Source of the DNA: Candidatus Saccharimonadales bacterium | Lineage (GTDB): Bacteria; Patescibacteriota; Saccharimonadia; Saccharimonadales; EFPC-124 | DNA: 64,000 nucleotides | Direction of reading: 5' to 3' | Assembly: GCA_050730875.1 (NCBI GenBank) | Contig: JBOHNX010000002.1 | Coordinates: 156,805-220,804, forward strand | Shown: piece by piece, positions 3 to 50,071 of the stretch | Layout: each line of letters opens with the position of its first letter | Position numbering within the stretch: the stretch's first letter is position 1 | Notes under the pieces: generated by a model | What the model was told of the DNA's origin: nothing | Database searches by the model: none | The model's input: only the letters and a program-made list of their open reading frames with translations | Position numbers and translations under genes: made by a program

Positions 3-800
3 CAAACCGATTTATATGAGTCAGCCGAACGCAATCAAAAAATCTTGAGCGCGGCGCAGGAACGGCACATTAATTATTCGTTTATCCCCGGCGAGGCCGA
101 ATTTTATTCGGGCAAAAACACCGTTGACGTGTTCTTGGGCTATCCTATTATTTCAGTTCACCAAACACCGCTGGTTGGCTGGGGAGTTATTGTAAAGCGA
201 ATCTTTGACCTTATCACCACCACGATGATTGTTATTCTTCTCTCGCCAATCTTACTCCTAATCGCCCTGCTGCAAAAAGTCTTCAACCAGGGCCCGATTT
301 TTTACGTCAGCACCCGCCTTTCGCGCTATTCAAAGCCTATTAAAGTCACTAAATTCCGCAGCATGGGCGCAAAATACGGTAAGAAAGATGCGGCCGAAGA
401 ATTCCGCGCCATGGGTCGCGAAGACTTGGCCGAAGAATACGAAAAAAACCGCAAGGTCAAAGATGACCCGCGTATTACCTGGTTCGGTAAATTCCTGCGT
501 ACTACTTCGCTCGATGAGCTGCCGCAGTTCTTTGACGTACTGAGAGGCGACCTCAGCCTGGTTGGACCACGCCCAATCCTGCCACAGGAACTTCACCTAT
601 ATAAAGGCAAGAACGCGCTGCTACATAGCGTAAAGTCTGGCGTAACCGGGCTGTGGCAGGTCTCCGGCCGTAGTGAGCTGCCGTTTGAAAAACGTGTAGA
701 GCTAGAACTCTACTACGCCCAAAACTGGACCTTCTGGCTCGACATTAAAATTCTGCTCAAAACCATCCCCGCTTTGTTTAAGCGAGGCAGCGCACTGTAA
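3..800 (+). CDS. Polyprenyl-phosphate glycosylphosphotransferase (bacterial sugar transferase, WbaP/EpsL-like); 5' end probably outside the window
   Basis: The frame is open from nt 3 with no upstream stop. A TM helix (IVILLSPILLLIALL) is followed by the sugar-transferase motif DELPQFFDVLRGDLSLVGPRP. The stop overlaps the next start (TAATG, 798-802). Confidence 0.85.
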   Translation, partial: QTDLYESAERNQKILSAAQERHINYSFIPGEAEFYSGKNTVDVFLGYPIISVHQTPLVGWGVIVKRIFDLITTTMIVILLSPILLLIALLQKVFNQGPIFYVSTRLSRYSKPIKVTKFRSMGAKYGKKDAAEEFRAMGREDLAEEYEKNRKVKDDPRITWFGKFLRTTSLDELPQFFDVLRGDLSLVGPRPILPQELHLYKGKNALLHSVKSGVTGLWQVSGRSELPFEKRVELELYYAQNWTFWLDIKILLKTIPALFKRGSAL

Positions 801-1906
801 TGAAGGTTGCCATCGTCCATGACTGGCTCACCAACATGGGCGGCGCCGAACCGGTCGTTTTAAAACTGCACGAAATCTTCCCGAACGCGCCAATTTACAC
901 ATCTGTCTATGACAAAGAGAAAATGACCGCTTTTGCTGGTTGCGATGTGCGCACCACCTACCTGCAACGTTGGCTACCTTCGTTTTTACGCTACAAGCAC
1001 GTGCTTTGGCCGGTGCTTCGGGCACACGCATTCCGCATGTTAGACCTGAGCGAATACGACCTTATAATTTCCAGCTCTAGCGCCGAAGCCAAGTCCGTTC
1101 GTAAACGTTCTGGCGCCATACATATTTGCTACTGCCACACGCCCATCCGTTACTACTGGAGTCATTACGATGATTTCCGCCGCGACTTCAATTTTGGTCC
1201 GCTCACCTTCGCAATCCGGCCATTCATTCCACTTTTTGTCCGCTGGATGCGCAAAAAAGATCTCGAATCGATCAAGGGCGTTGATCACTTCATTGCAAAC
1301 TCGCACGAAACCCAAGCGCGAATTAAAGAATATTATGGGCGCGAGAGTACGGTCATTTTCCCACCAGTAGATATTGAACGATTCATGAACAAGCCAGCAG
1401 ATGCAACCGAACGCGAAGGCTTTTTAATGTGGAGCCGCCATGTACCATACAAGCGTTTCGACCTCGCAATTGAAGCCTGCAATCGGCTCAAACTGCCGCT
1501 GACAATCGCTGGCACCGGCCCAGAAACAGAACGTCTCAAAAAACTAGCAGGCCCAACCATCACATTCGTAGGCCGCGTGTCAGACGAAGAAATCGTGCGC
1601 CTCGCCCATTCACACAAAGCCTTTTTGTTCCCCGGTGAGGAAGATTTCGGCATCACTCCCGTCGAAGCAATGGCTGCTGGCCTACCCGTAATTGCATATG
1701 GCAAAGGCGGCGCATTAGATTATGTAATTCCAAATAAAACCGGCATCTTATTTAAAGAGCAGACAGCGGATAGCTTAATCGCCGCTATAAAAGAATTCGA
1801 AACCAAAACCTTCGACCCTAAAACCATCCAAGCCTCCACCGAAAAATTCAGTCCAGAGCGCTTCGTAAAAGAAATTCAACAATTCGTAACTAATAAAGCC
1901 AAATAA
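800..1906 (+). CDS. Glycosyltransferase family 4 (GT-B, retaining)
   Basis: C-terminal GT1/GT4 signature EEDFGITPVEAMAAGLPVIAYGKGGALDYV. Translationally coupled to the upstream sugar transferase. Confidence 0.85.
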   Translation: MKVAIVHDWLTNMGGAEPVVLKLHEIFPNAPIYTSVYDKEKMTAFAGCDVRTTYLQRWLPSFLRYKHVLWPVLRAHAFRMLDLSEYDLIISSSSAEAKSVRKRSGAIHICYCHTPIRYYWSHYDDFRRDFNFGPLTFAIRPFIPLFVRWMRKKDLESIKGVDHFIANSHETQARIKEYYGRESTVIFPPVDIERFMNKPADATEREGFLMWSRHVPYKRFDLAIEACNRLKLPLTIAGTGPETERLKKLAGPTITFVGRVSDEEIVRLAHSHKAFLFPGEEDFGITPVEAMAAGLPVIAYGKGGALDYVIPNKTGILFKEQTADSLIAAIKEFETKTFDPKTIQASTEKFSPERFVKEIQQFVTNKAK

Positions 1907-1922
1907 AATCAAAATTGAGCTA

Positions 1923-1957
1923 GCCAGGGTGAATCGCTGGATGCGAAACACCCTGGC
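1923..1957. terminator. Hairpin between convergent genes (possible bidirectional terminator)
   Basis: A 9-bp perfect stem, GCCAGGGTG (1923-1931) / CACCCTGGC (1949-1957), lies between the stop at 1906 and the stop at 1984. The flanking T/A runs are weak. Confidence 0.35.
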
Positions 1958-1983
1958 TGCCTTTACTCGGTCATGCAGTCAAT

Positions 1984-3657
1984 TTACAGCTGCCATCTGG
2001 TGTTATCGAACACCAGGCCGGGAATTCCGACAAGCTGCGGACTTGCGAAGTGGTCACCATGCGAAGCGACCCACCAGATGTCCGGCGCCCCGTCTGAACG
2101 GCGCTGCGGTACCAGGAGGTCATCCCTCCCTGCACCGGTCAGATCCGCCGGGACGCCCGTACTGAAATCGTCATACCGCAGTTGGCTCGGCGCACTCCAG
2201 AACTGTGTGGCGCCCAAACCGGTGCCATTCGAAGGCAGAACAATCAGGTTCGGCGCCGTGTCGCTGCGACGACTGATGGCCAGAAGATCATCCTTGCCAT
2301 CACCCGTGTACTCGCCCACCAGCCACTTCGTGTTGTCGGCCACGAGGCTCGGTACACCGGCGGAGACCGGGGCTTCGAAGCCACTGCCAGTGGAACGGAG
2401 CCAGAAGATCTCCGGCGCCACACCACTGCTCTGCTTCTGAATCGCGAGCAAGTCGTCTTTGCCGTCACCGTCGATGTCGGCCGTGACGAAGAGCGTCTTG
2501 CTGAACTCGATGCCGCTGGGAGCGGCCCACAGTTCGGATCCACCGAGCCAGCTGCCCGTGGAGCGGAAGACGATCAGGTTCGCGGCGGGGTCGCCCCGCT
2601 TGCTGACCGCGAGCAGATCATCGTTCCCATCCCCGGTGAAATCACCTGAGGTCCACCTGGTATTGTTGTAGACGAGACCGGGTGTACCGACGTGGCGCGG
2701 CGATTCGAAGTTACTGCCGGTCGAACGGAGCCAGTATATGAGTGGTTCTGAATTGCCGTCACCTTGCTTCTGGATGGCCAGGAGGTCGTCCTTCGCATCG
2801 CCGTCAACGTCGGCAGGAGCACCGACGAAACCGTCGTAGGCGAGAGCACCAGGCGCACCCCACAGCTCCGAGCCACCCAACCAGCTTCCGGTCGAACGGA
2901 AGACGATCAGGTTCGGCGCGGTGTCGCTGCGCCGGCTGATGGCCAGAAGATCATCCTTGCCATCACCGTTGAAGTCAGCCCGCACGGGCACCGAAGTCAC
3001 ATTCGGCGACGAAGGCGGAGGTACGTCATACGAATCGTTGTAAACGAACTTGTCACTCCAGGAAGGAACCTTATCCCAACTCAGATAACCGAGGTTGCTC
3101 GGATACTGAATGAGCAAGCTCCCATGCCTAGCGTTCATCGATCCAGGATCAACCTTGGAGCCGTTCACCAGCTCGTCGTAATGAAGGTGCGCCACTGGCG
3201 AGCCGCCGCTGTTGCCGACGTAGCCGATGAGCTCACCTCGCGACACCGAGCCCGAGGTTCTGACAGCGTCAGAGAGGTGGAGGTAGCGCGAGTGACGGCC
3301 GTCGGGATGCTCGATCTCGACGAAGCGCCCTCTGCCTCCGCTGCATCCTGGTGAGTTGGTGGGATGACAAGTGTCGTTCGAATCGACGACCGTTCCCGGA
3401 CCTGCCGCGTAGACAGGAACACCGACGTCAGCGATGAAGTCGATCGCCGGCGACAATCCGCCGTGATACCCACTATCGCAGCCGTTGTTCCAGGTGCAGC
3501 CGACTTCGACCACACCACTGCCCACCTTGAACGGCAGCCAGTCGGCAGTCTCAGCGGCGTGCGCTGGTGCACTCACTCCCAGCAGTGCGAGACTGCTGAG
3601 GAGGGCAAGCACGGCCGCAGTGGCCATACGCTGTTTGACGCGTTGCACGTAGATCAC
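1984..3657 (-). CDS. Secreted M23 (LytM/lysostaphin-type) metallopeptidase fused to FG-GAP/VCBS-like beta-propeller repeats; compositionally foreign (high GC)
   Basis: Signal peptide ending ...GVSAPAHA. M23 motifs HGGLSPAIDF ... GYVGNSGGSPVAHLHYD. About six repeats of the form DFNGDGKDDLLAI / DVDGDAKDDLLAIQKQ. GTG start. Very GC-rich third codon positions; a 660-bp internal DNA duplication (e.g. GATGGCCAGAAGATCATCCTTGCCATCACC at 2277 and 2938). Confidence 0.9.
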   Translation of the reverse strand: MIYVQRVKQRMATAAVLALLSSLALLGVSAPAHAAETADWLPFKVGSGVVEVGCTWNNGCDSGYHGGLSPAIDFIADVGVPVYAAGPGTVVDSNDTCHPTNSPGCSGGRGRFVEIEHPDGRHSRYLHLSDAVRTSGSVSRGELIGYVGNSGGSPVAHLHYDELVNGSKVDPGSMNARHGSLLIQYPSNLGYLSWDKVPSWSDKFVYNDSYDVPPPSSPNVTSVPVRADFNGDGKDDLLAISRRSDTAPNLIVFRSTGSWLGGSELWGAPGALAYDGFVGAPADVDGDAKDDLLAIQKQGDGNSEPLIYWLRSTGSNFESPRHVGTPGLVYNNTRWTSGDFTGDGNDDLLAVSKRGDPAANLIVFRSTGSWLGGSELWAAPSGIEFSKTLFVTADIDGDGKDDLLAIQKQSSGVAPEIFWLRSTGSGFEAPVSAGVPSLVADNTKWLVGEYTGDGKDDLLAISRRSDTAPNLIVLPSNGTGLGATQFWSAPSQLRYDDFSTGVPADLTGAGRDDLLVPQRRSDGAPDIWWVASHGDHFASPQLVGIPGLVFDNTRWQL

Positions 3658-3775
3658 ACCCTTTCAAGGTGCATAAAGAAAGCGCCCGGGCTTATCCGGT
3701 CTCTGCGTTAGCCCTGTGCCAACGCAAACGCTTAGAAGGAGTCTACTTGAGTTTTGGTAAAAAAGTCAACAAATT

Positions 3776-5641
3776 TTAGAAGCCGCCGTAGCCGTAGCCA
3801 TAACCGTAAAACTCTAATGTCGGTTTATGGTAGTCGGTCACCTTGACCGGCTGACTTTTTGCAGCGTCTTGCCGTGGCAAAATGTAAAGTTCACTGCCTT
3901 TTTTGGCTACAAGTAGATAGTCGTCACCGTACCAACCATAAGGAGTATACTCGCTAAGGGTTGCGATCTCTTGCCCCTCTCCACCCTTAGCACTTCCTAC
4001 AAACAAAGTATTTTTACCGTCGCGAGGTTCGTACCAGAAGCTCAACTGACTCGACGGAGAAAGGAGGTGAGTCGGGTAAAACTTATTGAAGAAGGTATCG
4101 CGAGTAATCTCTTTAGCTTCAAAAATCTTTCCTTCCTCATACTCCCAGAATCCCTCTTTGCCGTCTATAAAAACATCAAAGATCACTTCTTGGGGTTCAT
4201 AGATTTTTGAAGCAACGATAGCGCTGTTTCTTGCAGAAAAACCCTTTAGCACACGACTTTCCGTCCCGCTTGGTCGTACGCTCATGATCACATCTTGTTT
4301 GCCATCTTCCTTGTGCGGTGAATAGTAGCTCGAACTCCAATTCTTGCTATATACAACTAGGTTCTCGAGGATATAGACATCACCATATACCTCATTCGTG
4401 TAATCATACTCACCTGATCCTTCGCCATTCGTTTCGTCCAGAATCGAAAGCTTAGCCGTACTAGCATTAAAGCTCTTAATGGCGTTTTGTTTTGGTTGCC
4501 AGCTCTTCATATCGTTGCGAGCAGTCTTAAAGATAAAGCGTTCGTTGTACCAACCAATTGGAGTAAATTCGGCATTACCTTCATCAATAATCGACAATTT
4601 ATCATTTGAAGTATCTAGAAGATATAGTTTTGGTTTGGTACTATCGCGTTTCGCCTTGAGCGCGAGGTACTTCCAATCGCGTGAGGCGAGCAGCACTGTT
4701 CCACCATCTTCTTCTTTACCTGTACCAGCAACTACAACCTGAGCATCACTACCATCGAGGTTCGACTTCATGACGTTGATTTTGCCCGTACGTTTGCTAA
4801 GGAAGTAAAGCTTGCCGCTCGGGGTGAGTGAGAAGGCGTTTTTATCTGTTGTCTGTTCGGTAACTTCAATGTCTACAGTAAGATCATTGTATCCCTGCAG
4901 TTTTACCGTGCCTTTTTCGGATATTTTGTCGGCTGGCAGTACAAGCAGCGCTTCACCCTTTTCGTCGGTAGTAACTGCAGTGTCGAGCGCACTGACTATG
5001 GCTTTTTCGATTGGTTTGCCACTGATTTTATTAAGGACTTTCACTGGAACTTGGTGGCCGGTTGCTTCAATCTTCAATTCGGTAGCTTTTGGCGCAGAAA
5101 AGATTGGCAGCAGCACGGTTTGCGATGCATCTTTGTAGTATTTCTTCTTCACTACCGCTTTTTGTTCGCCGACTGCCACACTCTTAAATTCGACTTTGCC
5201 CTGTTGGTCTGTTTTGCTGGTTCGGTTTGCCAGCGTAACTTCTACTTCGCTGACCGGCTTGTTGGTTTTGCTATCGATAACCGAGAGTACGACATCTTTC
5301 TTTACAACCGTGCCCGCAATAGCATACCGAGTGTACGGAATTGCCGAAAGCACAGCAATTACCAAAAGTAGCGCAATAACCGCAGCGACGATTTTGCCCT
5401 TTTTGGTTTTTAAGAAGGCCATCAAACGATGTTTGGGGTGAAGTGGCACAGCGGCAACGGGCGGAACTTCTGTTTGCTCGAGGGCTTTCGGTTCCTCGGA
5501 TGTGTCGGGATCATCAGATTGCTCTTGATCCTGCTTTTCCACAGGAACTTGGTACGTTTCAGCTTCGTGGTGCTGGATTGTTTCTTTTGCCGTTACGTCG
5601 CCTGGCTGCTGATCTTCAGCAGCTTTTTCTTTGTTTGCCAT
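3776..5641 (-). CDS. Membrane-anchored surface protein with carboxypeptidase-regulatory-like Ig domains and a TolB/DPP-IV-like beta-propeller region
   Basis: I trimmed the start to the ATG at 5641, which is preceded by AAGGAG; the longer ORF would overlap manC. Acidic N-terminus, one TM (IVAAVIALLLVIAVLSAI), then beta-rich repeats (KLYFLSKRTGKINVMKSNLDGSD...). Unusual C-terminal tail YGYGYGYGGF. Confidence 0.6.
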   Translation of the reverse strand: MANKEKAAEDQQPGDVTAKETIQHHEAETYQVPVEKQDQEQSDDPDTSEEPKALEQTEVPPVAAVPLHPKHRLMAFLKTKKGKIVAAVIALLLVIAVLSAIPYTRYAIAGTVVKKDVVLSVIDSKTNKPVSEVEVTLANRTSKTDQQGKVEFKSVAVGEQKAVVKKKYYKDASQTVLLPIFSAPKATELKIEATGHQVPVKVLNKISGKPIEKAIVSALDTAVTTDEKGEALLVLPADKISEKGTVKLQGYNDLTVDIEVTEQTTDKNAFSLTPSGKLYFLSKRTGKINVMKSNLDGSDAQVVVAGTGKEEDGGTVLLASRDWKYLALKAKRDSTKPKLYLLDTSNDKLSIIDEGNAEFTPIGWYNERFIFKTARNDMKSWQPKQNAIKSFNASTAKLSILDETNGEGSGEYDYTNEVYGDVYILENLVVYSKNWSSSYYSPHKEDGKQDVIMSVRPSGTESRVLKGFSARNSAIVASKIYEPQEVIFDVFIDGKEGFWEYEEGKIFEAKEITRDTFFNKFYPTHLLSPSSQLSFWYEPRDGKNTLFVGSAKGGEGQEIATLSEYTPYGWYGDDYLLVAKKGSELYILPRQDAAKSQPVKVTDYHKPTLEFYGYGYGYGGF

Positions 5642-5699
5642 TCGTGTGCACTCCTTTGCTTTAGCATAAGGAGTTCGAGAGTGTTGTGCAATATTTTTA

Positions 5700-6737
5700 T
5701 TAGTTTTTTGCCTGGATTTTTTTCGCAATGTCACCGACTTTTTGCGAAAGGTCTTTGCGGGCAACAAGCAGGCCGTGTGGAGTGTTTACGACAACAATAT
5801 TATCGAGGCCAATGACAGCGATGGGCTTACCCTCTTCGTTACGAATATACGAGTTTTCAATACCTTCGAGTTCGACACCTTCGCCACGGATGTGGTTACC
5901 AACTTCATCGGATTCGTTAGCATTGTGCAGATCCGCAAAAGATCCTACATCCATCCAGTCGAAAGAGGCAGGCACTACCAAAAGGTCATTTACTTTTTCA
6001 ATCAAGGCGTAGTCGATTGTATTGTTCTCAAGGTCTAAATAGGTATCGGCGTAATTATTGGCATCTGTTTTGAGCAGTTTTTCGTAATTCTCTTTTAGTT
6101 CTGGGCTGTGCGCCCCCATAGCCTTTATGAACGTACTGACGGAGCCAACAAAATAGCCGCAATTCCACAGGTAGTGGCCGCTTTGCACATACTCCTGCGC
6201 AACGTCAAACGCTGGTTTCTCTTTGAATGCCAACACGTTATAGACTAGCGCATCGTCGTCAACCGCGCCGTCCTTTTGGATGTAGCCAAAACCTGTTGCG
6301 GGGTACGTTGGCTCTACGCCAACAAGCGCAATCCTGCCTTGCTCGGCCGAAATTTCACCGGCAATTTTAAAGGAATGTTCAAAGCCATCGATGTCTCTAA
6401 TGTGGTGGTCGGCCGATAGGAAAGCAATTGGCTCACCTTTGTCGTGGCGCGATTGAATGTGGTGCAAAGCAGCAATGATACAGCTCGCCGTGCCACGACG
6501 GCCTGGCTCTACAATAAACGCATCTTCGCTCAGCTCGGATAATTGCTCACGAACGTGCGACGAATGACTCGATTCGGTAATGACATAGATGCTTTTTGAT
6601 AAACGCTTTGCTCGCTCGTATGTTGCCTGAAGGAGTGAATCCTCACCTGTGAGTTTTAAAAGGTGTTTTGGGTATTGATTGGTTGAGAGCGGCCACAAAC
6701 GTGTGCCCGAACCGCCGGCTATAATAACTGTGATCAT
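5700..6737 (-). CDS. manC: Mannose-1-phosphate guanylyltransferase (GDP-mannose pyrophosphorylase)
   Basis: N-terminal nucleotidyltransferase motif IIAGGSGTRLWPLS. I prefer the ATG at 6737 to the TTG at 6776. Sits with gmd and an rmd-like gene in the same locus. Confidence 0.85.
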   Translation of the reverse strand: MITVIIAGGSGTRLWPLSTNQYPKHLLKLTGEDSLLQATYERAKRLSKSIYVITESSHSSHVREQLSELSEDAFIVEPGRRGTASCIIAALHHIQSRHDKGEPIAFLSADHHIRDIDGFEHSFKIAGEISAEQGRIALVGVEPTYPATGFGYIQKDGAVDDDALVYNVLAFKEKPAFDVAQEYVQSGHYLWNCGYFVGSVSTFIKAMGAHSPELKENYEKLLKTDANNYADTYLDLENNTIDYALIEKVNDLLVVPASFDWMDVGSFADLHNANESDEVGNHIRGEGVELEGIENSYIRNEEGKPIAVIGLDNIVVVNTPHGLLVARKDLSQKVGDIAKKIQAKN

Positions 6738-6847
6738 ACAATCAAGTGTACCAGAATCTTTTGCAGACCAGCTCAATGATATAGCCTGATTTTTTAAGCA
6801 TAAACAGATTGACCAAAGGAAGATTTTTTGTTATAGTTAGTTTAAAT

Positions 6848-7411
6848 ATGGCACTGTCCCTTGGCATGAAAATTAAGAATAAAAAAACAAACCGTAAAAA
6901 AATATTCGCCCTGCTCGTCGTAGGCGTTGCATTAATAAGCCTGGGAGTCTATGGCTGGCTTCAGATCCCTAAGAACAGCTCCACGCAAGTCTCTCCCCGC
7001 CCCGTAAACGATGTTAACTACAGCCCAGCAACTGAAGAGGATAAGGCTGCAGTCGATCAACGCAAAGAAGATCTAGCCAAGGGTCAAGAACAAAAACCCG
7101 CAACAAATCCAGCAATTTCTCTTACCGTCACACGAGCATCACAATCTGACGCAGGTCAGCCACTCAACATTCGCACTGTAATTAGTGGGGCGAGCAGCGG
7201 TACCTGCGAGGTCAATCTCACAAAGTCAGGTCAGCCAACCATTACAAAATCGTTTTCTGTACTATTTGAGGCAACCTCGGCTATGTGCGCGGATGCCAAT
7301 ATTCCTACAAGCGACTTTTCGACTGGAGGGGAATGGCAACTGAAAATACAGGTTAAAAAGGATGCTCGGCAGTCCAATATAGTTGAACAATCGGTGAAAA
7401 TAACGAAATGA
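6848..7411 (+). CDS. Hypothetical membrane-anchored protein (start uncertain: 6809 TTG, 6848 ATG or 6866 ATG)
   Basis: Basic N-terminus plus TM (IFALLVVGVALISLGVYGW) and a beta-rich ectodomain. ATGA overlap with the downstream lectin gene at 7408-7411. Confidence 0.55.
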   Translation: MALSLGMKIKNKKTNRKKIFALLVVGVALISLGVYGWLQIPKNSSTQVSPRPVNDVNYSPATEEDKAAVDQRKEDLAKGQEQKPATNPAISLTVTRASQSDAGQPLNIRTVISGASSGTCEVNLTKSGQPTITKSFSVLFEATSAMCADANIPTSDFSTGGEWQLKIQVKKDARQSNIVEQSVKITK

Positions 7412-9375
7412 CGACTACACGCACTATCGGTTTTACTATTTTTCTCGCCATTATACTGAGCGCTTCGACTATCTTTCCTGCTGCGCCTACTCAGGCCTTA
7501 TCAGGATCAGAGTTTAACCCTGGTCGCATAATCGACAATGGCGTCTTCGAAAACAAGAACGCAATGAACGTCGATCAGATTCAGCGATTCCTTAGCGCCA
7601 AGGTTCCAACTTGCGATAGCTGGGGCACGCAACCATATGCTGGTACCACCCGCCGCGAGTACTCCGAGGCGCGTGGCATCAAGTTCCCACTTACCTGTTT
7701 AAAGGACTATCACGAAAACCCAACAACTCACGAAAATAATCTAGAGGGTCGGTCTATCCCTGCCGGCGCAAAAAGTGCAGCTCAGATTATTTACGACGCA
7801 GCCCAACAATATACGATTAACCCACAAGTGCTCATAGTTTTACTTCAAAAAGAGCAGGCTCTTGTAACGGATGATTGGCCATGGCCAATCCAATACCGCA
7901 GCGCAACCGGGTATGGCTGCCCAGATACAGCGCCGTGCGATTCTGAATACTACGGGTTTTATAACCAAGTCATGAATGCTGCGCGCCAGTTCAGGCGCTA
8001 TGCGACCTACCCCAACAACTACAACCATGTGCCGAACCAGAACAACTTTATCCGATGGAGCCCAAATAGTACGTGTGGCGGCAGCACCGTTTATATACAC
8101 AATCAAGCAACCGCCTCTCTCTACAACTACACCCCTTACCAGCCAAACCAAGCAGCCCTGAACAACCTCTACGGCACGGGTGATAACTGTAGTGCTTACG
8201 GCAATCGCAATTTTTGGCGATATTTCAGAGACTGGTTTGGTGCAACTATAGGACCTGCGTACGCATGGCAATATGACAGCCAATCAGCCTATACTGACAG
8301 TACTCGCACTAGGCACTACTCGTACGAAACCATCTCACTCGCTCCCGGTGAGAAAGCCTATATCGTCCTGAGAGCCAAAAACACTGGGGGCTTAATGTGG
8401 CATAAGGGTACCGTCAAGCTGGCGACTGCGAGGGCAAGTGATCGATCTAGCGCATTTGCCGATGGTAGCTGGACGACACCTTCTAGGATTAACCTCCAGG
8501 AAGATGAGGTATACCCGTCATCAGTAGGAACATTCGTTTTTTCAATCACAGCTCCAACGCAAACAGGCAGCTACCGCGAGTACTTCAACCTTGTAGCCGA
8601 AGGGATCACTTGGATGAACGACTTGGGAATGCATCTCAATATCGACGTAACGCCGAAACGTTCCGGAAATAGCGCCTCTCTGACAAAGCTTGATTCAGGC
8701 CAGTCTCTAGAAACAGGCCAATCATTGTACTCCCCTGATGACTACACGATAGTTGCTATGCAAGGAGACGGTAACCTTGTTATCTACCGGGACTTCAGGG
8801 CGGTCTGGTCGAGCGGAACGAATGTTACTGGCGGCAAAAGACTAACTATGCAAAACGATGGCAACCTGGTCATAACTAATGCATCTGGCGGCACAGTATG
8901 GTCCAGCGGAACGACCGGGAATCCTGGCGCGTACTTTATGGCGCAGGCAGATAGTAACACAGTCGTTTATACATCGTCGTCCAACCCAGTCTGGTCAAGT
9001 GGGACTGACACGAACCCCGATGGTTTGTCGCGCGTAAACCCTACTCTGCCAATAGGAGCGCTCCGCGTGAACCAGTCCCTCACCACAGCAGACTTGTACT
9101 ACAAATTTATACTGCAAGGAGATGGCAACCTAGTACTGTACGCAAACAATCGAGCAATCTGGTCATCGGGCACACACGGGAAGCCTTCATCAGGCCTGGT
9201 TATGCAAGCAGATGGCAACTTGGTTATATACACCCCCGATGGCAAACCACTTTGGTCCAGTGGAACTGACGGTAAGGGTGGCGCCAGGCTTACTGTCCAG
9301 GGGGACGGTAACCTCGTAATGTATACTCCAAATAATCAGCCGGTGTGGTCGAGCAATACGGCGGGAGTACGCTAG
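7408..9375 (+). CDS. Secreted multidomain protein: N-terminal putative cell-wall-hydrolase-like domain, an Ig-like domain, and two C-terminal bulb-type (MMBL/B-lectin) mannose-binding lectin domains
   Basis: Signal peptide ...PAAPTQALS. Six QxDxNxVxY-type motifs: QGDGNLVIY, QNDGNLVIT, QADSNTVVY, QGDGNLVLY, QADGNLVIY, QGDGNLVMY, each followed by (V/I/L)WSS(G/N)T. N-terminal block INPQVLIVLLQKEQALV. Confidence 0.8.
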   Translation: MTTTRTIGFTIFLAIILSASTIFPAAPTQALSGSEFNPGRIIDNGVFENKNAMNVDQIQRFLSAKVPTCDSWGTQPYAGTTRREYSEARGIKFPLTCLKDYHENPTTHENNLEGRSIPAGAKSAAQIIYDAAQQYTINPQVLIVLLQKEQALVTDDWPWPIQYRSATGYGCPDTAPCDSEYYGFYNQVMNAARQFRRYATYPNNYNHVPNQNNFIRWSPNSTCGGSTVYIHNQATASLYNYTPYQPNQAALNNLYGTGDNCSAYGNRNFWRYFRDWFGATIGPAYAWQYDSQSAYTDSTRTRHYSYETISLAPGEKAYIVLRAKNTGGLMWHKGTVKLATARASDRSSAFADGSWTTPSRINLQEDEVYPSSVGTFVFSITAPTQTGSYREYFNLVAEGITWMNDLGMHLNIDVTPKRSGNSASLTKLDSGQSLETGQSLYSPDDYTIVAMQGDGNLVIYRDFRAVWSSGTNVTGGKRLTMQNDGNLVITNASGGTVWSSGTTGNPGAYFMAQADSNTVVYTSSSNPVWSSGTDTNPDGLSRVNPTLPIGALRVNQSLTTADLYYKFILQGDGNLVLYANNRAIWSSGTHGKPSSGLVMQADGNLVIYTPDGKPLWSSGTDGKGGARLTVQGDGNLVMYTPNNQPVWSSNTAGVR

Positions 9376-9406
9376 TAGCTCAGGCCTTGTGCTAGAATAT
9401 CCATAA

Positions 9407-11401
9407 ATGAAAAAACGAAAAGATAGCTTTACCCTATTCAATCCTCTGACCGTGGTGATAGGGGCTGTCCTTTCACTGGTAGGCGTCTACTATAGTTTGA
9501 ACTTATTAGTTTTGCTCCTTTCGCTGGGTGCAGCATATTTCCTCTTGCGCCCTCTCCTGTACTCAACCACTTTCGACACGGTATTCGCCCGTCTTATTGC
9601 CAGCTTGATGCTCTATGTGGTCATCCTGCAGGCGGTAGTACTTACCTCTTGGTTAATCGACCATAACATGTCCTTGAGGGCCGTGCTGGATATAACTCTT
9701 GTTATCTTATACGTGTCACTTATTTGGAGATGGTTCACTGAGAAAAAGTGGTACATGGACCTCTCTGATGAGAGTGGCAGTAGAATTATTGGCAGGATAG
9801 ACGTAATCTGCATAACTGTAGCACTTGGCCTTATCTTGCTCGTCTTTCTAGGGCCAATCATTAAAAATGATAAGCTCTCTTCTGAGGTTGCGCTTAACTA
9901 CATCAACACAAGCCTCGATGACAGCAATCACCTCTCTCGTATCAATGACCGCCTACAGCTTGATCGCGGAGTCTTAGCGAATACAGATAAAGTTGAATAC
10001 GTCGTATTGGCAGAGTCAATAAGCTCGTACCCGCCGGGTTGGCACTCGGCAAATGCGATAATCATCGATTCGCTGTGGCCAAATATCAAAGTCGGGAGTC
10101 ATACCGTTGTAGCTTATGTTATTTCAAAGGCCTTCTGGCTATTTGTGCTAGCTTACTTATTCTGTAAAGCGATTTTTCATTTTTATAGGAAATATATCAA
10201 TGAGTCCTTTACTGGGTACGGCCTGGTCACGATTACCTGGCTTACTGGAGCAGCGGCCTTTTTTGCATACTACGCCTTGCTCGAGCAATTTCGAGAGGGA
10301 TTTTACAGTTTCATACCTCAGCTCATTTTTCTCTTGCTTGCCATGCTGCTTTTCACACAGAAAGAACTTACCTCCGAAAGATCTTCCGGCCGCACCTTTG
10401 TGGCGTTAATGCTTACAACCGTTGGCATTACACTTTCCTGGATCCTCGCACTACCGGCAATCAGTTTAGCCATCCTCGTTACATACCTTCTCTCTAGTAA
10501 TATCCGTGTTGTGGGTAAGAATATCACTAGAGTATCTACTCAGCTTGGACACTTCCTTCCACTCCTCCTGATCTCGGTGGCTGCGATTTTTGTACAGATT
10601 TATTTGATCGTAACCACCGACTACCGGTCCTTTTCAGAGGCCGTCAATGACCCTGGAGCAATCAGCCTACACAGTGACTGGTATTACGTGTTCTTGGTGG
10701 TTGGTATTGCGGCATTTTATCGACTTGCCATCGCACGGGCGAGTTACTTAAACGGGGTAACTGTGTTCTTACTGGGACTTCTGGGCTTTTCGTTATTTAT
10801 TTTTCTATTCCAAATGTACAGTATAGGCAAAATAGAATATTACAGCCTTAAAACTATAAACACTTTTGTTGTAGTATCCCTCCCACTGGCCATAGTCGGG
10901 ATTTATGCCTTGTTAGAGAGAGCGTCACAGGGATATTCCCGATTAACGCAAATCGCGATCACGCTGCTTACGTTGTTCAGCCTGCCGATCATCATCGGCG
11001 TTAACCCTACAAACACCTCGAACCTCGCCTACCTTGTAGGGCGCCGAGACCTAAGCTCGTCCGAAATCACCTATATTCACCACAGCCTGGATGAGCGCTC
11101 AAAAGTACCGGTAGAACATCGAACTCAAGATGTTATTTTTTATACTCCTGGTCGAGTTGGCCATAATATAGTTGCTTCGAATATATTGCGCTCAATTCAG
11201 CATATTGACACCTGTGATGACAAGGCATTTAGTGCCTTGTTGCAGGACTCACCTGATGCTTTAGTGAAATCGGTAAGCACGTGCGGCATTAAGGAAAGGG
11301 AACTTACTGTTGTGACGCAAAAAAAATATTACGAGGCAGTAAAAAGTCTCTTCTCCAACCCATCTTTTGCGGAAAAAGTACGAATTGTTGCGCTCGACTA
11401 G
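9407..11401 (+). CDS. Large polytopic membrane protein, candidate GT-C-type glycosyltransferase or polymerase (function inferred from context only)
   Basis: More than 12 predicted hydrophobic helices across 664 aa with a soluble C-terminal domain. Convergent with the GT2+GtrA pair. Confidence 0.45.
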   Translation: MKKRKDSFTLFNPLTVVIGAVLSLVGVYYSLNLLVLLLSLGAAYFLLRPLLYSTTFDTVFARLIASLMLYVVILQAVVLTSWLIDHNMSLRAVLDITLVILYVSLIWRWFTEKKWYMDLSDESGSRIIGRIDVICITVALGLILLVFLGPIIKNDKLSSEVALNYINTSLDDSNHLSRINDRLQLDRGVLANTDKVEYVVLAESISSYPPGWHSANAIIIDSLWPNIKVGSHTVVAYVISKAFWLFVLAYLFCKAIFHFYRKYINESFTGYGLVTITWLTGAAAFFAYYALLEQFREGFYSFIPQLIFLLLAMLLFTQKELTSERSSGRTFVALMLTTVGITLSWILALPAISLAILVTYLLSSNIRVVGKNITRVSTQLGHFLPLLLISVAAIFVQIYLIVTTDYRSFSEAVNDPGAISLHSDWYYVFLVVGIAAFYRLAIARASYLNGVTVFLLGLLGFSLFIFLFQMYSIGKIEYYSLKTINTFVVVSLPLAIVGIYALLERASQGYSRLTQIAITLLTLFSLPIIIGVNPTNTSNLAYLVGRRDLSSSEITYIHHSLDERSKVPVEHRTQDVIFYTPGRVGHNIVASNILRSIQHIDTCDDKAFSALLQDSPDALVKSVSTCGIKERELTVVTQKKYYEAVKSLFSNPSFAEKVRIVALD

Positions 11402-11421
11402 ATTTCAGTAAAAATACTCGG

Positions 11422-12153
11422 TTATTTTGAGAACAAATTGAACCGGATGATATCGTAGATCGCTTCTATTCCGTCCTTCAAACCAATCTTCTTGCCCTCC
11501 GATTTTGTCCTGCCGTAATACGAAATGCTTGTTTCACAAATACGAAGAGCTTCTTTCTCTTTTGCGATCATGGCAACTATCTCAGGGTTAAACCCAAACC
11601 TCTTTGATTGAAGCCGCGGGGCACGCGAGCGAATCCAGTCCCCGTCAAACATGATATAACAGGTATGTATATCGCTCACATACAGACCACTCAATACGGC
11701 AGACAGACGTGTCATGAATTTATTCGCAACCGTATTGGTCAAGTAAACAACCCTACGTGGCGCACCCCCAGAGAATCGTGAGCCGAGAACTACATCAGCT
11801 CTATCTTCTTTGAAAATATCGATAAGTTTTATGTAGTCTCGTGGGTCATACTCCCTGTCTGCATCTTGCACTATAACCAAATCACCGGTCGACTCGAGAA
11901 ACCCTCGTTTCAACGCAGCACCCTTACCCTGGTTGCGTTCTTGGTATATCGGCTTGATATTCTTGTGTTCTTTGGCAAGAGTGGCGATAATCTTGGCGGT
12001 ATTATCTTTTGAATGGTCGTCGACCATTATTATTTCTTTTTCTATACCTTGTAGATCAACTGCAAGGATTTCGTCGACAATATCCTGTAGTGTTGTCTCT
12101 TCGTTATAGCAAGGCATTACGATTGATAATTTTTCCACAAGTCTTTCCTTCAC
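11422..12153 (-). CDS. Glycosyltransferase family 2, polyprenyl-phosphate sugar synthase-like (GtrB/DPM1-like)
   Basis: IVMPCYNEE ... VDDHSKDNT ... QGKGAALKRG ... VQDADREYDP (DxD region). Confidence 0.85.
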   Translation of the reverse strand: MKERLVEKLSIVMPCYNEETTLQDIVDEILAVDLQGIEKEIIMVDDHSKDNTAKIIATLAKEHKNIKPIYQERNQGKGAALKRGFLESTGDLVIVQDADREYDPRDYIKLIDIFKEDRADVVLGSRFSGGAPRRVVYLTNTVANKFMTRLSAVLSGLYVSDIHTCYIMFDGDWIRSRAPRLQSKRFGFNPEIVAMIAKEKEALRICETSISYYGRTKSEGKKIGLKDGIEAIYDIIRFNLFSK

Positions 12154-12626
12154 CTATTTTCCCTTCTTTTGAATCTGAATATAAGCCTGTAGCCCAAGAA
12201 ATTTAGCATAAACGACGCCCCTACACTCATAACCTTTGCAATAAAGTTGAGAGTCAGATCATGTTCGGCGAAGAAGGAGATAGGTGAAAGAACAAACCGA
12301 ACCGCCACAATCACCGCCGACTGCACCACCCACGCATTGAACGCGGTTACACCGACAAAACCCACTATGCTGTATAGCCTATTCTGATCGGAACGAAATA
12401 CGAACTTGCGGTTCAGGACATAGCTCACACTCATGGTTATGCCTGTCGACATGGTGTTCGCTACAACAGGGTGCCAGTAAAGTATGTTGGCGAAAAAGAG
12501 AAAGAGAGTTATATCTAAAACTGTGTTGAACGAGCCGACGAAAAGAAACTTAACAAAACCCTGGCGTCGTTTTAAAAAAGCGGGCAAAGGTAATCTGCTC
12601 AGGTATCTTGCGTCAAAATTTTCCAT
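12150..12626 (-). CDS. GtrA-family small membrane protein (putative polyprenyl-P-sugar flippase component)
   Basis: 158 aa with four hydrophobic helices. FVGSFNTVLDITLFLFF ... YVLNRKFVFR is typical of GtrA-like proteins. 4-nt overlap with the downstream GT2 gene. Confidence 0.75.
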   Translation of the reverse strand: MENFDARYLSRLPLPAFLKRRQGFVKFLFVGSFNTVLDITLFLFFANILYWHPVVANTMSTGITMSVSYVLNRKFVFRSDQNRLYSIVGFVGVTAFNAWVVQSAVIVAVRFVLSPISFFAEHDLTLNFIAKVMSVGASFMLNFLGYRLIFRFKRRENR

Positions 12627-12761
12627 TACTTGTTTGCGGCCTTGTGCTTAATTATATCTGTGATAGTTCTTTTCTCCAATCACACAAGGCTGATGTCTGC
12701 AGCGCTCCGACTATTCTTCGTCTAGTCAATGTCGACTTGTATCTGTTATGATTACTATTAT

Positions 12762-13940
12762 ATGAGAAGAAATAAAACCATTTTTATCGATGGTCTTGGA
12801 TTAGTCGATGGTCATTTTAGCGGCGTCGGCCAGTACATACTCGGTATTCTTCAAGGTATGGATGAGTTGCTCGATGAACTCAAATCAGCTGGAGAACCTC
12901 ATCCTGATATATGTGTAATCATTCCTTACGACAAAGTAGAGCGTTTTCATGAATTCGGTTTCAAACACCTTCATTATCGGCGCTTCCCCGTCCCGTTTCG
13001 CTACATGGCAAAACTATGGCACCGCGGGCTATTACCCCCAATAGATTTGTGGTGTGGCAGAGGAAACTACATTTTTCCGCGCTTCGTCGATATGCCGCTG
13101 CTTTTTAGTCGTAATGTTGGGCTAGTGATTTTCGACCTCTCTTACGAGCTGCACCGTCAATATTCCGATGAAGGTAACGCAAAGTTTTTGTCCCGACGCG
13201 TAAAGCACTCCCTTAAACGCGCAAAACATATTATTACGATATCGGAAAACGCTAAAAAAGAGATTGTTGACTTTTATAACGTTAAGCCAAGCGATGTTCT
13301 CGTTGCTACTCCGGCCGTTAATCAACGACAACTTTACAGAAGGAGCGCCGACGAAATTGAACGGGTGAAGATGAAATACGGGATTAAGGCGAAACGATAC
13401 ATCCTGGCGCTCTCAAACCTAGAGCCGCGCAAGAACCTGCAAGCACTCGTTGACGCGTACTGTTGTCTACCAGAGACACAGCGCAAAGACACTGCCCTCT
13501 TGCTTGTCGGTGTAAGCGGCTGGAAGGCCGACGCCCTCTTTGAAGAAATTATCCAAAAAGTTTCCGAGGGGTACAATATCATCCGACCAAGCAAATACGT
13601 CTCGGACACAGACAAGGCTGCCATCATTTCCGGCGCATCACTTCTCGTCTATCCAAGCCATTATGAAGGGTTCGGCATGCCGCCGCTTGAGGCGCTTGCA
13701 TGTGGCGTGCCGGTTATTACATCTGACAACTCGTCCCTACCAGAAGTTGTTGCCGGGGTAGGTGAAATGGTAGACGTGTCACAGGGCAATGAACCTCTTC
13801 GAAAAAGTCTTGCAAACGCGGTAAAGAATCTCGATAGACTATCGCGCGACGCACTTACCAAAGGACCTGCCCGTGCAGCTGAATTCTCTTGGAAAAAGAG
13901 CGCTCAAGTATTTCTTGATGTGGTAAAGGATAGGCGGTGA
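12762..13940 (+). CDS. Glycosyltransferase family 4
   Basis: HYEGFGMPPLEALACGVPVITSDNSSLPEV. I prefer the ATG at 12762 (MRRNKTIFIDG...) to the one at 12729. Confidence 0.85.
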   Translation: MRRNKTIFIDGLGLVDGHFSGVGQYILGILQGMDELLDELKSAGEPHPDICVIIPYDKVERFHEFGFKHLHYRRFPVPFRYMAKLWHRGLLPPIDLWCGRGNYIFPRFVDMPLLFSRNVGLVIFDLSYELHRQYSDEGNAKFLSRRVKHSLKRAKHIITISENAKKEIVDFYNVKPSDVLVATPAVNQRQLYRRSADEIERVKMKYGIKAKRYILALSNLEPRKNLQALVDAYCCLPETQRKDTALLLVGVSGWKADALFEEIIQKVSEGYNIIRPSKYVSDTDKAAIISGASLLVYPSHYEGFGMPPLEALACGVPVITSDNSSLPEVVAGVGEMVDVSQGNEPLRKSLANAVKNLDRLSRDALTKGPARAAEFSWKKSAQVFLDVVKDRR

Positions 13941-32331: not shown

Positions 32332-32818
32332 TCTGCGCCTCCGTGATTGTTACTTCGGGTGTCAGTGCGTCGTCGGAAAGTTTTACGGTGACATCGTAAC
32401 GTGCCTCTGGATCTATAGATACGAGCGTAAACTTGTACGTTGCTGGGCTATCGGCTATCCGCGAGACTGACGCGTCGAGGACGCCAGCAGTGACGCTAGT
32501 GGCGCCTGCCTGTGCTCTCAGAAAGTTTGTCAAAGCTTCTGTAATACTTTCGGCTTGCTCGAGTTCAATAGTGTCGTAAAAGTCATTGAGGCCGGAAATC
32601 GAAACTTGGTTGACGGCGGTTTCGTGAGCATGGCCGGTTTCGGCCTCTTCTTCCTTTTCGGGGAAGGCGCTGCGAGCTTCGCCGCTGATTTTGTCGGTGT
32701 AGATGACCTCTTCTTTACCTACTTCCGGCTGTTGCATAGCTATAACAACCCACACAATAACCGCCAGCCCGACGATGATTACTAGTATCGAAGCAATAGT
32801 GATCGATCGCTCGTTCAT
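32324..32818 (-). CDS. Hypothetical bitopic membrane protein
   Basis: A single TM (ITIASILVIIVGLAVIVWVVIAM). Overlaps both neighbours, consistent with an operon. Confidence 0.5.
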   Translation of the reverse strand: MNERSITIASILVIIVGLAVIVWVVIAMQQPEVGKEEVIYTDKISGEARSAFPEKEEEAETGHAHETAVNQVSISGLNDFYDTIELEQAESITEALTNFLRAQAGATSVTAGVLDASVSRIADSPATYKFTLVSIDPEARYDVTVKLSDDALTPEVTITEAQNE

Positions 32819-34044
32819 TTCAGATACTCCAAACTATCGTTTTTAGGATTATGGCCAACAAAGTAGTAGTTAAAGTGCCATGGTTCAAATATCCCACCAG
32901 TGCCACCTTGTCCGTTCTTTGCCCAGTTTGGCCAGAACCAGCCAAAGCGTGGTCCGTTGAGCACCAGCCAATCGTGCTGTTTGGTGCCGTCTTCGGAAAG
33001 GGCGCCAGTAAAGTCGATTGCCGTCCCCCACAGGTGTCCTGGAGGCGGATAGTTCGGATCATACCCCGCACAGGCCGGGTTGGTAATTGCACAGTTTTTT
33101 TGCTCTTCTGCCGAGCGGAAACCTTGGCCAACCGGCATTCGCCTGCCAAAGGTCTTCTTGTATTCGGCGTCGACAGCAAGGAACGAATCACAGGCAGGCC
33201 CTTTTAATAGTTTAAACCCTGGTTGCTCTGGACGTGGTGTGCAGAGCAAGCTCGCTGGTAGCTCGCCTGCCTTATATTTCTTGAGAAGTTCGGTGTAATC
33301 TACCTTTGCGCCAACGCCGGCGCCAAAACAACCGCTGGTGCCAGCTACGTTGGCATAGACGGTCATTGCACCGTAGCGGGTTTCCTTACGGCCAGCCAAT
33401 GTTTCACCTGGAATGTTCGGAAAGGTCATGTCTTTGTGTGCGGCATCGTACTGGTTCATGACATAGGGCGATTTGTCTGGCGAAGTGTTGGCATTTTTGT
33501 ACGAATAGCCGCGGTTGTACACAATGAACGCTTGTTGTAGCTGCTCAAAGTTCATGGGTTTGGTGACATCCACATCGTAAACGCCTTTTGCCAAGCCTTT
33601 GAGGATTCGAGAGCCAAAAATAATGCTTTCTAATTTGGTTTTTGGTGCCAGTTCAGGATGGTCTACGGATGGTCTACCAAGTGGTTCCCCGCCTAGCATC
33701 GACTTGTTTGGGTCATTATTATTTTCTCGGTAGTCGATTGCGGCGAACACTTGCCACGGAATTTTGGTTTCGGTGCTGGCTTGTTGGTATACGTCTTGCA
33801 GTTCGTTAATGCGTTTACGTGTTGTCTCGTCGATTTTTGTTGAAGATGGTTTGACGGCTGTTGTTCCACTACTGCTATCGCCACCGCAGGAGGCTATGTC
33901 GATTGGGTCATAAAACTCATGCACCTGGCGGATTGCCTCGAGCTCCTGGTTGGATATTGCTAGAGCCGGCACTACCCCGCTTGCTGCCAATACAACTGCC
34001 ACAAAAGCGGCACGAAAAACTTGGGTACATTGCCTAAGGCTCAC
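32815..34044 (-). CDS. Secreted peptidoglycan hydrolase with a C-terminal M15 (VanY/LAS-type D,D- or L,D-peptidase) domain
   Basis: Signal peptide ...VVPALA. LAS zinc-peptidase motifs GFRSAEEQ ... HLWGTAIDF ... EPWHFNY. The N-terminal half is unassigned. Confidence 0.75.
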   Translation of the reverse strand: MSLRQCTQVFRAAFVAVVLAASGVVPALAISNQELEAIRQVHEFYDPIDIASCGGDSSSGTTAVKPSSTKIDETTRKRINELQDVYQQASTETKIPWQVFAAIDYRENNNDPNKSMLGGEPLGRPSVDHPELAPKTKLESIIFGSRILKGLAKGVYDVDVTKPMNFEQLQQAFIVYNRGYSYKNANTSPDKSPYVMNQYDAAHKDMTFPNIPGETLAGRKETRYGAMTVYANVAGTSGCFGAGVGAKVDYTELLKKYKAGELPASLLCTPRPEQPGFKLLKGPACDSFLAVDAEYKKTFGRRMPVGQGFRSAEEQKNCAITNPACAGYDPNYPPPGHLWGTAIDFTGALSEDGTKQHDWLVLNGPRFGWFWPNWAKNGQGGTGGIFEPWHFNYYFVGHNPKNDSLEYLK

Positions 34045-37648: not shown

Positions 37649-37652
37649 GGCG

Positions 37653-40498: not shown

Positions 40499-40547
40499 GG
40501 GCAGGCCAACATCCCCCTATTTATGTAATGATGACTCAAGCGCTTGT

Positions 40548-49981: not shown

Positions 49982-50071
<90 letters not shown>

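Follow-up and report, generated by a model that had tools for sequence, protein, structure and literature searches.

How does a gene with the composition of a high-GC organism come to lie in a surface-glycan locus of a Saccharimonadales bacterium, and what might its product do there? The question is raised by an open reading frame (ORF) on the minus strand, at positions 1984-3657 of a stretch of 64,000 nt (the window) from contig JBOHNX010000002.1. Coordinates are those of the window unless a locus label is given; L labels denote contigs or loci, and P labels denote proteins in our list of homologues. The product of the ORF is identical to MGH7196891.1 of a Candidatus Saccharimonadales metagenome-assembled genome (MAG), so that the Saccharibacteria-like genome supposed in a first-pass annotation of the window is indeed what the window belongs to. 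Its sequence and a structure model mark the product as a secreted M23 peptidase that bears an FG-GAP propeller, the activity being predicted. The reading that we favor, with rather more confidence than doubt, is that of a secreted, lectin-targeted M23 lysin in a conserved Saccharimonadales slot, whose coding sequence has been replaced by high-GC bacterial DNA.

In base composition and codon usage, the ORF looks throughout its length like a gene of a 60-70% GC organism. Its GC content is 61.6%, against 48.4% for the whole window and 48.1% for the remainder, and when a frame of the length of the ORF is slid along the window, GC reaches its maximum exactly at the ORF (0.617; mean 0.485, standard deviation 0.033). 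A 300-nt profile rises at ~1950 and falls at ~3700; GC, GC at third codon positions (GC3), and codon usage all agree with the abrupt jump that the first-pass annotation had placed at ~1960 and ~3700, and its hand counts (38/60 G+C for 2041-2100 and 21/60 for 4081-4140) are exact on recount. The values for GC1, GC2, and GC3 are 0.63, 0.51, and 0.715, respectively, the last with a z score of 4.3 relative to the 44 other ORFs of the window (0.495 +/- 0.051, maximum 0.62). Third positions are therefore raised, but at 71.5% the earlier description of them as almost all G or C was overstated. Relative synonymous codon usage (RSCU) correlates at r = 0.32 with the native genes of the window, which correlate with their own pool at an average r = 0.62, and at r = 0.81-0.87 with the neighboring genes on contigs of 62-71% GC (L004, L001, L172, and L007). 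Other frames on both strands are open at the ORF, as had been noted, with spurious ORFs of 99-196 aa. Composition and codon usage are thus unlike those of the host and like those of the putative donor, one of the marks by which an island is recognized.

The encoded protein begins with a Sec-type signal peptide (basic n-region QRVKQR, hydrophobic core, cleavage between APAHA and AETADW), which forms a helix at residues 2-26 of the structure model; the mature N terminus AETADW is conserved across the M23 family. Pfam PF01551 (Peptidase_M23) matches aa 71-171 with 65.6 bits against a cut-off of 28.7, which places the module in the family. The predicted metal and catalytic residues H65, D73, H127 (RYLHL), H157, and H159 (H-L-H) are invariant in 13 family members, and the motifs align to those of 3slu, with a spacing of H-x7-D instead of HxxxD. 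Foldseek matches the domain at probability 1.0 to ShyA, Csd1/2, lysostaphin, zoocin A, EnvC LytM, and LasA, and phmmer also places it with solved M23 enzymes. In the C-terminal propeller, Pfam finds five FG-GAP_3 and two FG-GAP stretches. An AlphaFold (AF2) model built with 26 homologues has a mean pLDDT of 88.8 and two domains: the M23 domain (~aa 40-210, pLDDT ~90) and, after a disordered linker (213-220), the propeller (225-557, pLDDT ~90 or above). Among solved structures, UmbA4 (9oee chain A; phmmer E 4.9e-19) is closest to the propeller, and it is also the top match in Foldseek (E 2.2e-19). Pfam, model, and Foldseek thus agree with the earlier description of a secreted M23 peptidase with FG-GAP repeats. 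At the DNA level the propeller has a period of 165/330 nt, and its repeats must be old, because the copies are only 62-79% identical; the same divergence rules out recent internal duplication or gene conversion as the source of the high GC.

By sequence comparison, both domains of the ORF are closest to proteins encoded on high-GC contigs. The architecture as a whole has no relative of high identity, the best full-length match being 42%, and the M23 subfamily of the AETADW type is rare (28 clusters at E<=1e-30 among 1.84 billion representatives). The closest M23 modules are P0009 (L168, 79%) and P0010 (L004, 75%), both on contigs of ~62% GC, while other Saccharimonadales copies are 54-64% identical to that of the window. 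A search of 185,579 species-representative genomes with the M23 domain returned two Saccharibacteria MAGs as the best matches, followed by Acidimicrobiales, Actinomycetes, Acidimicrobiia, and Iamiaceae. The closest propellers belong to proteins in which a CHAP domain rather than an M23 domain is joined to the propeller (P0002, P0004-P0008, P0012, and P0013; 46-64% identity over the whole domain). These follow the same logic of wall hydrolase plus propeller, and their genes, where contexts are known, have native composition in contigs of 68-71% GC: P0002 (64% identical) lies on a 68% GC contig together with F420-oxidoreductase, ECF-sigma, and TetR genes, and P0005 on a 71% GC contig. More distant named propeller relatives are almost all actinomycetes, including Streptomyces, and outside Saccharibacteria nearly every relative with a name belongs to Actinomycetota. 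Examined domain by domain, the taxonomy of the homologues thus bears out what the first-pass annotation had expected, the closest relatives lying on contigs of 62-71% GC and the named ones being mostly Actinomycetota.

A neighbor-joining (NJ) tree of the M23 module (32 sequences, 173 columns, 100 bootstraps) points the same way. The window copy forms a clade with P0009 and P0010 at 99%; the phylogenetic check that had been proposed for the M23 domain therefore groups it with high-GC-contig copies, that is, probably among another lineage, a second mark of an island. The L005 copy groups with L009 at 99%, with P0018 from a high-GC contig (L172) adjoining this group, and the L173 copy groups with P0024 and P0017. 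The three genes from the same locus (those of the window, L005, and L173) thus fall into three different subclades, and high-GC-contig copies are interleaved among them.

Some of the high-GC contigs themselves have uneven surroundings at the M23 gene. The genes in L004 and L168 have unusually AT-rich upstream regions, and around the gene in L172, which has an integrase, an ISL3 transposase, and an RHS-repeat gene beside it, GC drops to 0.56-0.61 from 0.64-0.70. In addition, L004 holds ArdA, DUF3846, a DNA methyltransferase, and a transposase. This suggests that the M23 gene is mobile in high-GC genomes too. We find no support for a plasmid or phage as vector, since the plasmid and phage collections hold distant matches only (27-32% to Streptomyces FG-GAP proteins, and M23 domains of Streptomyces phage tape-measure proteins).

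The high-GC stretch begins and ends inside a set of native control elements (see Table 1). Three start codons can be considered, GTG 3657, GTG 3648, and ATG 3627, the last being the NCBI start (547 aa); GTG 3648 has the best spacing from the Shine-Dalgarno sequence GAAAGGG and is the probable true start. The GTG start given by the first-pass annotation is possible (3657 or 3648), yet ambiguous with respect to ATG 3627. A sigma-70-like promoter lies upstream; a promoter scan gave two sites in the region against 0.5 expected, and equivalent TATAAT/TATACT boxes lie directly 5' of the leader in L173, L005, L009, and L088.

Promoter and coding sequence are separated by a Y-shaped 5' leader, and leaders homologous to one another stand before this rare M23 module in at least four Saccharimonadales contigs. 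Six leaders, each from a different contig, were folded by minimum energy, and every one forms a closing stem around two hairpins. Among the sequences that can be aligned, which number only four, all 13 P1/P2 pairs are kept, seven of them with compensatory changes; in controls on these four, none of 500 shuffles reaches the score, and slid controls show 27-49% pairing. P3 gives no column-by-column MAFFT alignment and is backed by single folds and by changes from CCGG/CCGG to CCGA/UCGG. A covariance model (R1) recovers the window, L005, L009/L090, and L173 at 52-64 bits, these being the sequences from which it was built (L090 is a second assembly of the L009 sequence). Run with filters off, it gives no match 5' of the M23 genes on the high-GC contigs L004, L168, and L172, and none in L088, L006, or L008; judged visually and from the minimum-energy folds, a Y-shaped leader of similar form is present in L088 and L006 but not in L008. 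Downstream of the leader, a hairpin is predicted to pair the Shine-Dalgarno sequence, and its element recurs as CACCUU...AAGG(U)G in L009 and L005 and as CCUUCC...GGAAAGG in L006. We infer that this hairpin is regulatory, and the leader probably gates translation.

Against Rfam 15 (4227 families), the leader has no match at gathering thresholds, nor at E<=10, and we found no description of it in the literature. Going by the four to six sequences that we have, it is a candidate for a new, riboswitch-like cis-regulatory RNA; hardly any such RNAs are known from this phylum. The ydaO (c-di-AMP) element lies upstream of actinobacterial rpf genes, and such riboswitch-type leaders of wall hydrolases share with the window a structured 5' untranslated region and a hairpin pairing the ribosome-binding site before a secreted wall hydrolase; the leader of the window differs in its length (~60 nt), its simple Y shape, and its lack of an Rfam match.

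At the other end, the ORF is followed by a terminator-like hairpin that is shared with the convergent GT4 gene and that a simple scan had missed, its loop being >8 nt; a hairpin of similar architecture lies 3' of the L005 gene. The high-GC stretch starts within ~25 nt of native regulatory RNA and ends ~30 nt before the terminator. The slot consists of a native promoter, a leader of ~60 nt, a hairpin pairing the ribosome-binding site, the ORF, and a terminator. The simple insertion between native genes that had been proposed does not fit this arrangement, in which the ORF sits between a native-type promoter and leader on one side and a terminator on the other, in a locus that is shared with relatives.

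The M23 gene is found in the same surface-glycan locus in three contigs. In the window the order is ManC > CarboxypepD_reg > M23 > < GT4 < Bac_transf. In L173 it is ManC > M23 > < GT4 < Bac_transf, with GT4 and Bac_transf each 78% identical to those of the window, and in L005 it is CarboxypepD_reg > < GT4, M23 > < Bac_transf (Bac_transf 74%, ManC 67%, and GT4 56%), the locus there also having Wzy_C and GtrA. We have not seen an empty site: the nearest relatives of the flanking genes are ~50-78% identical, and L173 and L005 hold a homologous gene. Since they carry it at the same locus, we read the event as a replacement and not as a new insertion. The flanks in the window are native, as had been stated, but the immediate neighbors are GT4 and CarboxypepD_reg, and ManC and Bac_transf stand one gene further out. 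The CarboxypepD_reg neighbor has hundreds of Saccharimonadales homologues, the best only 50-56% identical, and two of the contexts in which these occur, L169 and L171, belong to another locus. The repeats of 1900-3800 include no direct repeats bordering the ORF, and a scan of the five flanking proteins (window 45-7411) gave no integrase domain; signatures of mobility (integrase, tRNA target, and direct repeats) are thus absent within these scans, in agreement with the first-pass annotation.

High-GC copies recur in other low-GC Saccharimonadales contigs. A metagenome scan added only four close loci. In L005, a contig of 1.09 Mb, the M23 gene has 58.5% GC and the flanks and contig 47%. L006 and L089 carry the same protein and upstream region (ENA ERZ27251759 and JGI Ga0307516), the gene having 64% and the contig 48% GC. 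The gene has 63% in L008 (Saccharibacteria; flanks ~45%) and 65% in L088, a short contig (flanks ~47%), and in L009/L090 (Saccharibacteria UBA6572) the M23 copy is at native composition. GC3 in the M23 part and the C-terminal part, respectively, is 0.69 and 0.73 in the window (native 0.495), 0.60 and 0.82 in L005 (neighbors 0.46), and 0.44 and 0.63 in L009 (neighbors 0.52-0.65); the whole L173 gene is at 0.50 (neighbors 0.48). The series runs from native composition (L173) by way of a mosaic (L005) to high GC throughout (the window and three or four further contigs). Homologues in the same phylum with similar GC had been named beforehand as what would speak against a capture. Same-phylum homologues are present, and they are at native GC in L173 and L009, whereas the others are high-GC islands.

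The shared M23 module is joined to at least three kinds of FG-GAP propeller, to a bulb lectin (P0019 and P0023), and to other beta-rich domains. Between L008 and L006, P0017 and P0024 are 76% identical at the amino acid level and the flanks share nothing; in L006, L008, and L009 the gene is found elsewhere than in the glycan locus. The window itself encodes, at native composition, a 655-aa protein with a B_lectin (bulb-lectin) domain, the C terminus of which is 39-41% identical to the lectin part of P0019. Such similarity in sequence suggests that lectin domains may also be exchanged with native Saccharimonadales genes.

Two more genes of high GC (~0.62-0.66) flank the M23 gene in the ~46% GC contig sequenced as L089 and L006. 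Their products, of 734 and 178 aa, match no Pfam family and are apparently secreted, and a reverse-transcriptase gene lies ~5 kb upstream.

Table 1. Positions of the elements discussed, in the window and in related contigs
Sequence	Feature	Position	Strand	Remarks
Window	ORF, 557 aa from GTG 3657	1984-3657	-	Stop TAA 1986-1984; high-GC body
Window	Sec-type signal peptide	3556-3657	-	Read from translation
Window	M23 zinc endopeptidase module, AETADW type, aa 35-215	3013-3555	-	Pfam PF01551
Window	Six-repeat FG-GAP/VCBS beta-propeller, putative lectin	1987-2991	-	55-aa repeats, DxxGDGxDDLL loops
Window	Sigma-70-like promoter, TTGACT-18 nt-TAGACT	3740-3769	-	AT-rich native-type sequence; 9/12 matches
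Window	Y-shaped 5' leader	3675-3735	-	Stem P1 AAGCG/CGCUU; hairpins P2 GCGUUGG/CUAACGC and P3 CCGG/CCGG
Window	Shine-Dalgarno-pairing hairpin AUGCACCUUGAAAGGGUGUGAU	3653-3674	-	Pairs GAAAGGG with upstream CACCUU; predicted fold
Window	Homologous leader region, including promoter and Shine-Dalgarno hairpin	3653-3769	-
L173	Homologous leader	5156-5210
L005	Homologous leader	9939-10000
L009	Homologous leader	5912-5969
Window	Terminator-like hairpin GCCAGGGUG-17 nt-CACCCUGGC, then U-rich tract	1923-1957	-	Predicted fold
Window	Bac_transf sugar-phosphate transferase	45-800	+	Pfam; native flank
Window	GT4 glycosyltransferase	800-1906	+	Pfam; stop/start codons overlap with Bac_transf
Window	CarboxypepD_reg-domain protein	3776-5767	-	Pfam; conserved in Saccharimonadales
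Window	ManC-type nucleotidyltransferase	5700-6776	-	Pfam; conserved in Saccharimonadales
Window	655-aa B_lectin protein	7408-9375	+
L173	Lectin part of P0019	5837-6583
L004	AT-rich region upstream of M23 gene	9811-10000
L168	AT-rich region upstream of M23 gene	~1100-1330
L172	Lower-GC stretch with M23 gene	~4400-12800
L089	Two further high-GC genes	3474-5678 and 9324-9860
L006	The same two genes	7486-9678 and ~13.3-13.9 kb
Window	Type IV secretion-like cluster	32815-44785	-	Native composition
Window	VanY-domain protein	32815-34044	-	Within this cluster
Window	1049-aa protein with C-terminal M23 domain	34499-37648	-	Within this cluster
Window	VirB4-like ATPase	37653-39590	-	Within this cluster
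Window	PrgI-family protein	40548-41516	-	Within this cluster
Window	Four tRNA genes	49982-51194 and 54619-54707	+	Rfam

Taken as a replacement, the coding sequence would have been exchanged, whole or by domain, for high-GC bacterial DNA: in full in the window and mainly in the lectin half in L005. The donor would most likely be a member of Actinomycetota, the hosts of cultivated Saccharibacteria. Natural transformation would be a plausible route, since Saccharibacteria are naturally competent epibionts of Actinobacteria (PMC10633639), and recombination might, speculatively, have been anchored in the conserved leader and translation-start region or in the M23 core. Host-to-epibiont gene transfer has been reported for the Candidate Phyla Radiation (CPR)/Patescibacteria (PMC10031880, PMC12455944); surveys of CPR gene transfer and a Saccharibacteria genome collection treat transfer in general terms, with no mention of this family or of any M23 enzyme. 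The ORF resembles known compositional islands of horizontal transfer in its atypical GC, GC3, and codon usage and in its phylogenetic incongruence. It differs from them in being a single ORF, in that no integrase, tRNA site, or flanking repeats were found, and in occupying a conserved slot that is filled in relatives.

Several points weigh against a replacement. The high-GC copies in four to five of ~8 low-GC contigs require many independent replacements, and a replacement that ends so exactly at the borders of the ORF lacks an explanation. The M23 identity among the same-locus genes, 59-61%, lies within the range of the flanking genes (47-78%) and alone would be compatible with vertical descent. 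As for the NJ tree, it was built on 173 columns and is weakly supported at its deeper nodes. No donor was found, the nearest relatives being those at 79% (M23) and 64% (propeller); identity at four-fold sites is 0.48 (nearest M23) and 0.25, where chance gives 0.30, and the next nearest is at chance. The only hint for the placement of L004 is an HTH_31 regulator with actinomycete-plasmid matches at 28-33% identity; its methyltransferase has matches in many phyla, and the relatives of its tRNA-ligase-like gene are in metagenomes only. The first-pass annotation had spoken of a recent acquisition from the host lineage. Of this, the high-GC composition and the relatives of the two domains support a source of the host's kind, but the position within the slot and the copies in the same phylum do not fit a plain capture. 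As to "recent", the event is undatable with such distant nearest relatives, and because synonymous sites are near saturation, composition is all that speaks for a recent date.

If the product is a lysin, its propeller would, after Sec export, bind a surface glycopolymer, by analogy with UmbA4 one that is teichuronic-acid-like and on an actinobacterial cell; the zinc-dependent M23 domain would then cut peptide cross-links at the site of wall contact, translation of the lysin being gated by the leader. The structure 9oee shows the UmbA4 lectin of Streptomyces coelicolor in complex with teichuronic acid from S. griseus (Zhao et al., Cell 2025, PMC13274773), and umbrella (Umb) toxins have diversified, swappable lectins (propeller, bulb lectin, and others) that bind actinobacterial teichuronic-acid-like polymers in a species-specific manner (PMC13274773). 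The window propeller is homologous to that of UmbA4 and has the same degenerate repeats with Ca-loop motifs, though identity is only ~27-31% and ligand binding is putative. Like the Umb toxins, the M23 family pairs one effector module with propeller or bulb-lectin C termini; its effector is a fused M23 peptidase and not a separate polymorphic toxin. The window protein is not itself an Umb component, as it lacks the trypsin-like domain that binds UmbB (its N-terminal domain in Pfam is M23), and no Umb-like partner genes are present in the five flanking proteins scanned or in the ORF list of the window. Streptomyces proteins with trypsin and FG-GAP domains (P0028-P0044) seem to show the UmbA domain pattern. 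With M23 enzymes of the lysostaphin, zoocin A, and LytM type, the product shares PF01551, the fold, catalytic residues, secretion, and a layout of catalytic domain, linker, and targeting domain; it differs in belonging to the rare AETADW subfamily, with conserved cysteines and H-x7-D in place of HxxxD, and in being targeted by a six-repeat FG-GAP propeller and not by an SH3b or target-recognition domain. It is most aptly classed as a lysostaphin-type M23 lysin bearing an UmbA-like lectin, acquired horizontally, its unusual feature being recurrent replacement within a slot behind a structured leader.

The homology to UmbA4, together with the fact that a single catalytic module is combined with exchangeable lectins, argues for the actinobacterial (host) wall as the target, on analogy with the umbrella toxins. 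The homology also strengthens the suggestion of the first-pass annotation that the enzyme could be directed at host peptidoglycan. The position inside a glycan locus may nevertheless leave room for a self-directed role. A bolder version of the replacement reading, which we consider less likely than not, is that the lysin slot repeatedly receives lysin alleles or actinobacterial lectins from host DNA by transformation. The epibiont would thereby take over glycan-binding domains of its host phylum (UmbA-like propellers and bulb lectins) to aim the M23 enzyme at the host wall, and the cassette would serve as a fast-evolving determinant of host range. We liken this to the domain swapping seen in phage endolysins and receptor-binding proteins. 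If true, it would suggest that DNA of the host phylum is being captured at one locus on an ongoing basis, would make the cassette a marker for inferring the hosts of uncultured Saccharibacteria, and would show how swapped domains can retarget an enzyme in nature. On the simpler reading, the gene is one more horizontally acquired wall hydrolase, of moderate interest. To our knowledge, little is understood of how Saccharibacteria recognize their actinobacterial hosts, attach to them, and damage them, or of which hosts most environmental lineages have; the protein is a testable candidate for host recognition or lysis.

A different function, which we consider rather unlikely, is that of a self-directed autolysin that remodels the cell's own wall, with the propeller anchored to the surface polysaccharide of the surrounding locus. 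The gene does lie among glycan genes in three genomes (Bac_transf, GT4, and ManC, with Wzy_C and GtrA in L005), a housekeeping role in cell separation is common among M23 proteins (ShyA, Csd, and DipM are among the fold matches), and an enzyme as dangerous as an autolysin would be well served by a leader controlling its translation. For a housekeeping enzyme, however, it would be unexpected that the module is joined to very different lectin-like C termini and exchanged with high-GC bacteria; the closest solved propeller recognizes actinobacterial wall polymers, and the genes of L006, L008, and L009 stand outside the glycan locus.

With respect to origin, the M23 cassette might instead be an old resident, acquired once or ancestral and since inherited vertically, its high GC being kept up by, for instance, codon or mRNA selection or biased gene conversion among its repeats. 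Vertical descent would account for the shared locus and homologous leader in the window, L173, and L005, for M23 identities (59-61%) similar to those of flanking genes, and for the many GC-rich copies in Saccharimonadales, and a protein with 32% Gly, Ala, Arg, and Pro lifts GC1 and GC2. It would not account for GC3 and RSCU that fit high-GC genomes and are unlike native genes, nor for the gene at the same position in L173 with its native GC3, nor for the step in GC3 within the L005 gene. The 99% grouping of the window module with high-GC-contig copies and the spread of the same-locus genes over three subclades also oppose it, and internal repeats of such divergence leave no place for recent conversion; we regard it as distinctly unlikely. 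An assembly chimera or binning artefact, in which a piece of actinobacterial DNA was wrongly built into a Saccharimonadales contig, is very unlikely, for although the sample is a metagenome and the composition borders are sharp, the sequence is native on both sides in a single 306-kb contig (305,844 bp), borders ~25 nt from the start codon and ~30 nt from the stop, between a leader homologous to those of other Saccharimonadales and a terminator, would need two exact mis-joins, and islands of this type occur in assemblies made independently, among them ERZ27251759 and Ga0307516, which share one protein and its upstream region.

Beside the high-GC gene, the ORFs of CarboxypepD_reg (TTG 5767) and ManC (stop 5700) overlap by 68 nt. 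The NCBI model of the CarboxypepD_reg protein has 621 aa against 663 aa, and its true start probably lies further downstream.

Elsewhere in the window, a type IV secretion (T4SS)-like cluster of native composition resembles the monoderm-type T4SS of Patescibacteria (bioRxiv 10.1101/2025.01.22.634366). It includes the M23 domain at 34499-34900 that the first-pass annotation had offered as a native comparison. Such a domain exists, but it is the C terminus of a T4SS protein and is related to the module of the slot at fold level only; a paralogue of the high-GC gene is therefore ruled out, the protein being a type IV secretion-associated hydrolase. Four tRNA genes are the window's only Rfam matches at gathering thresholds.

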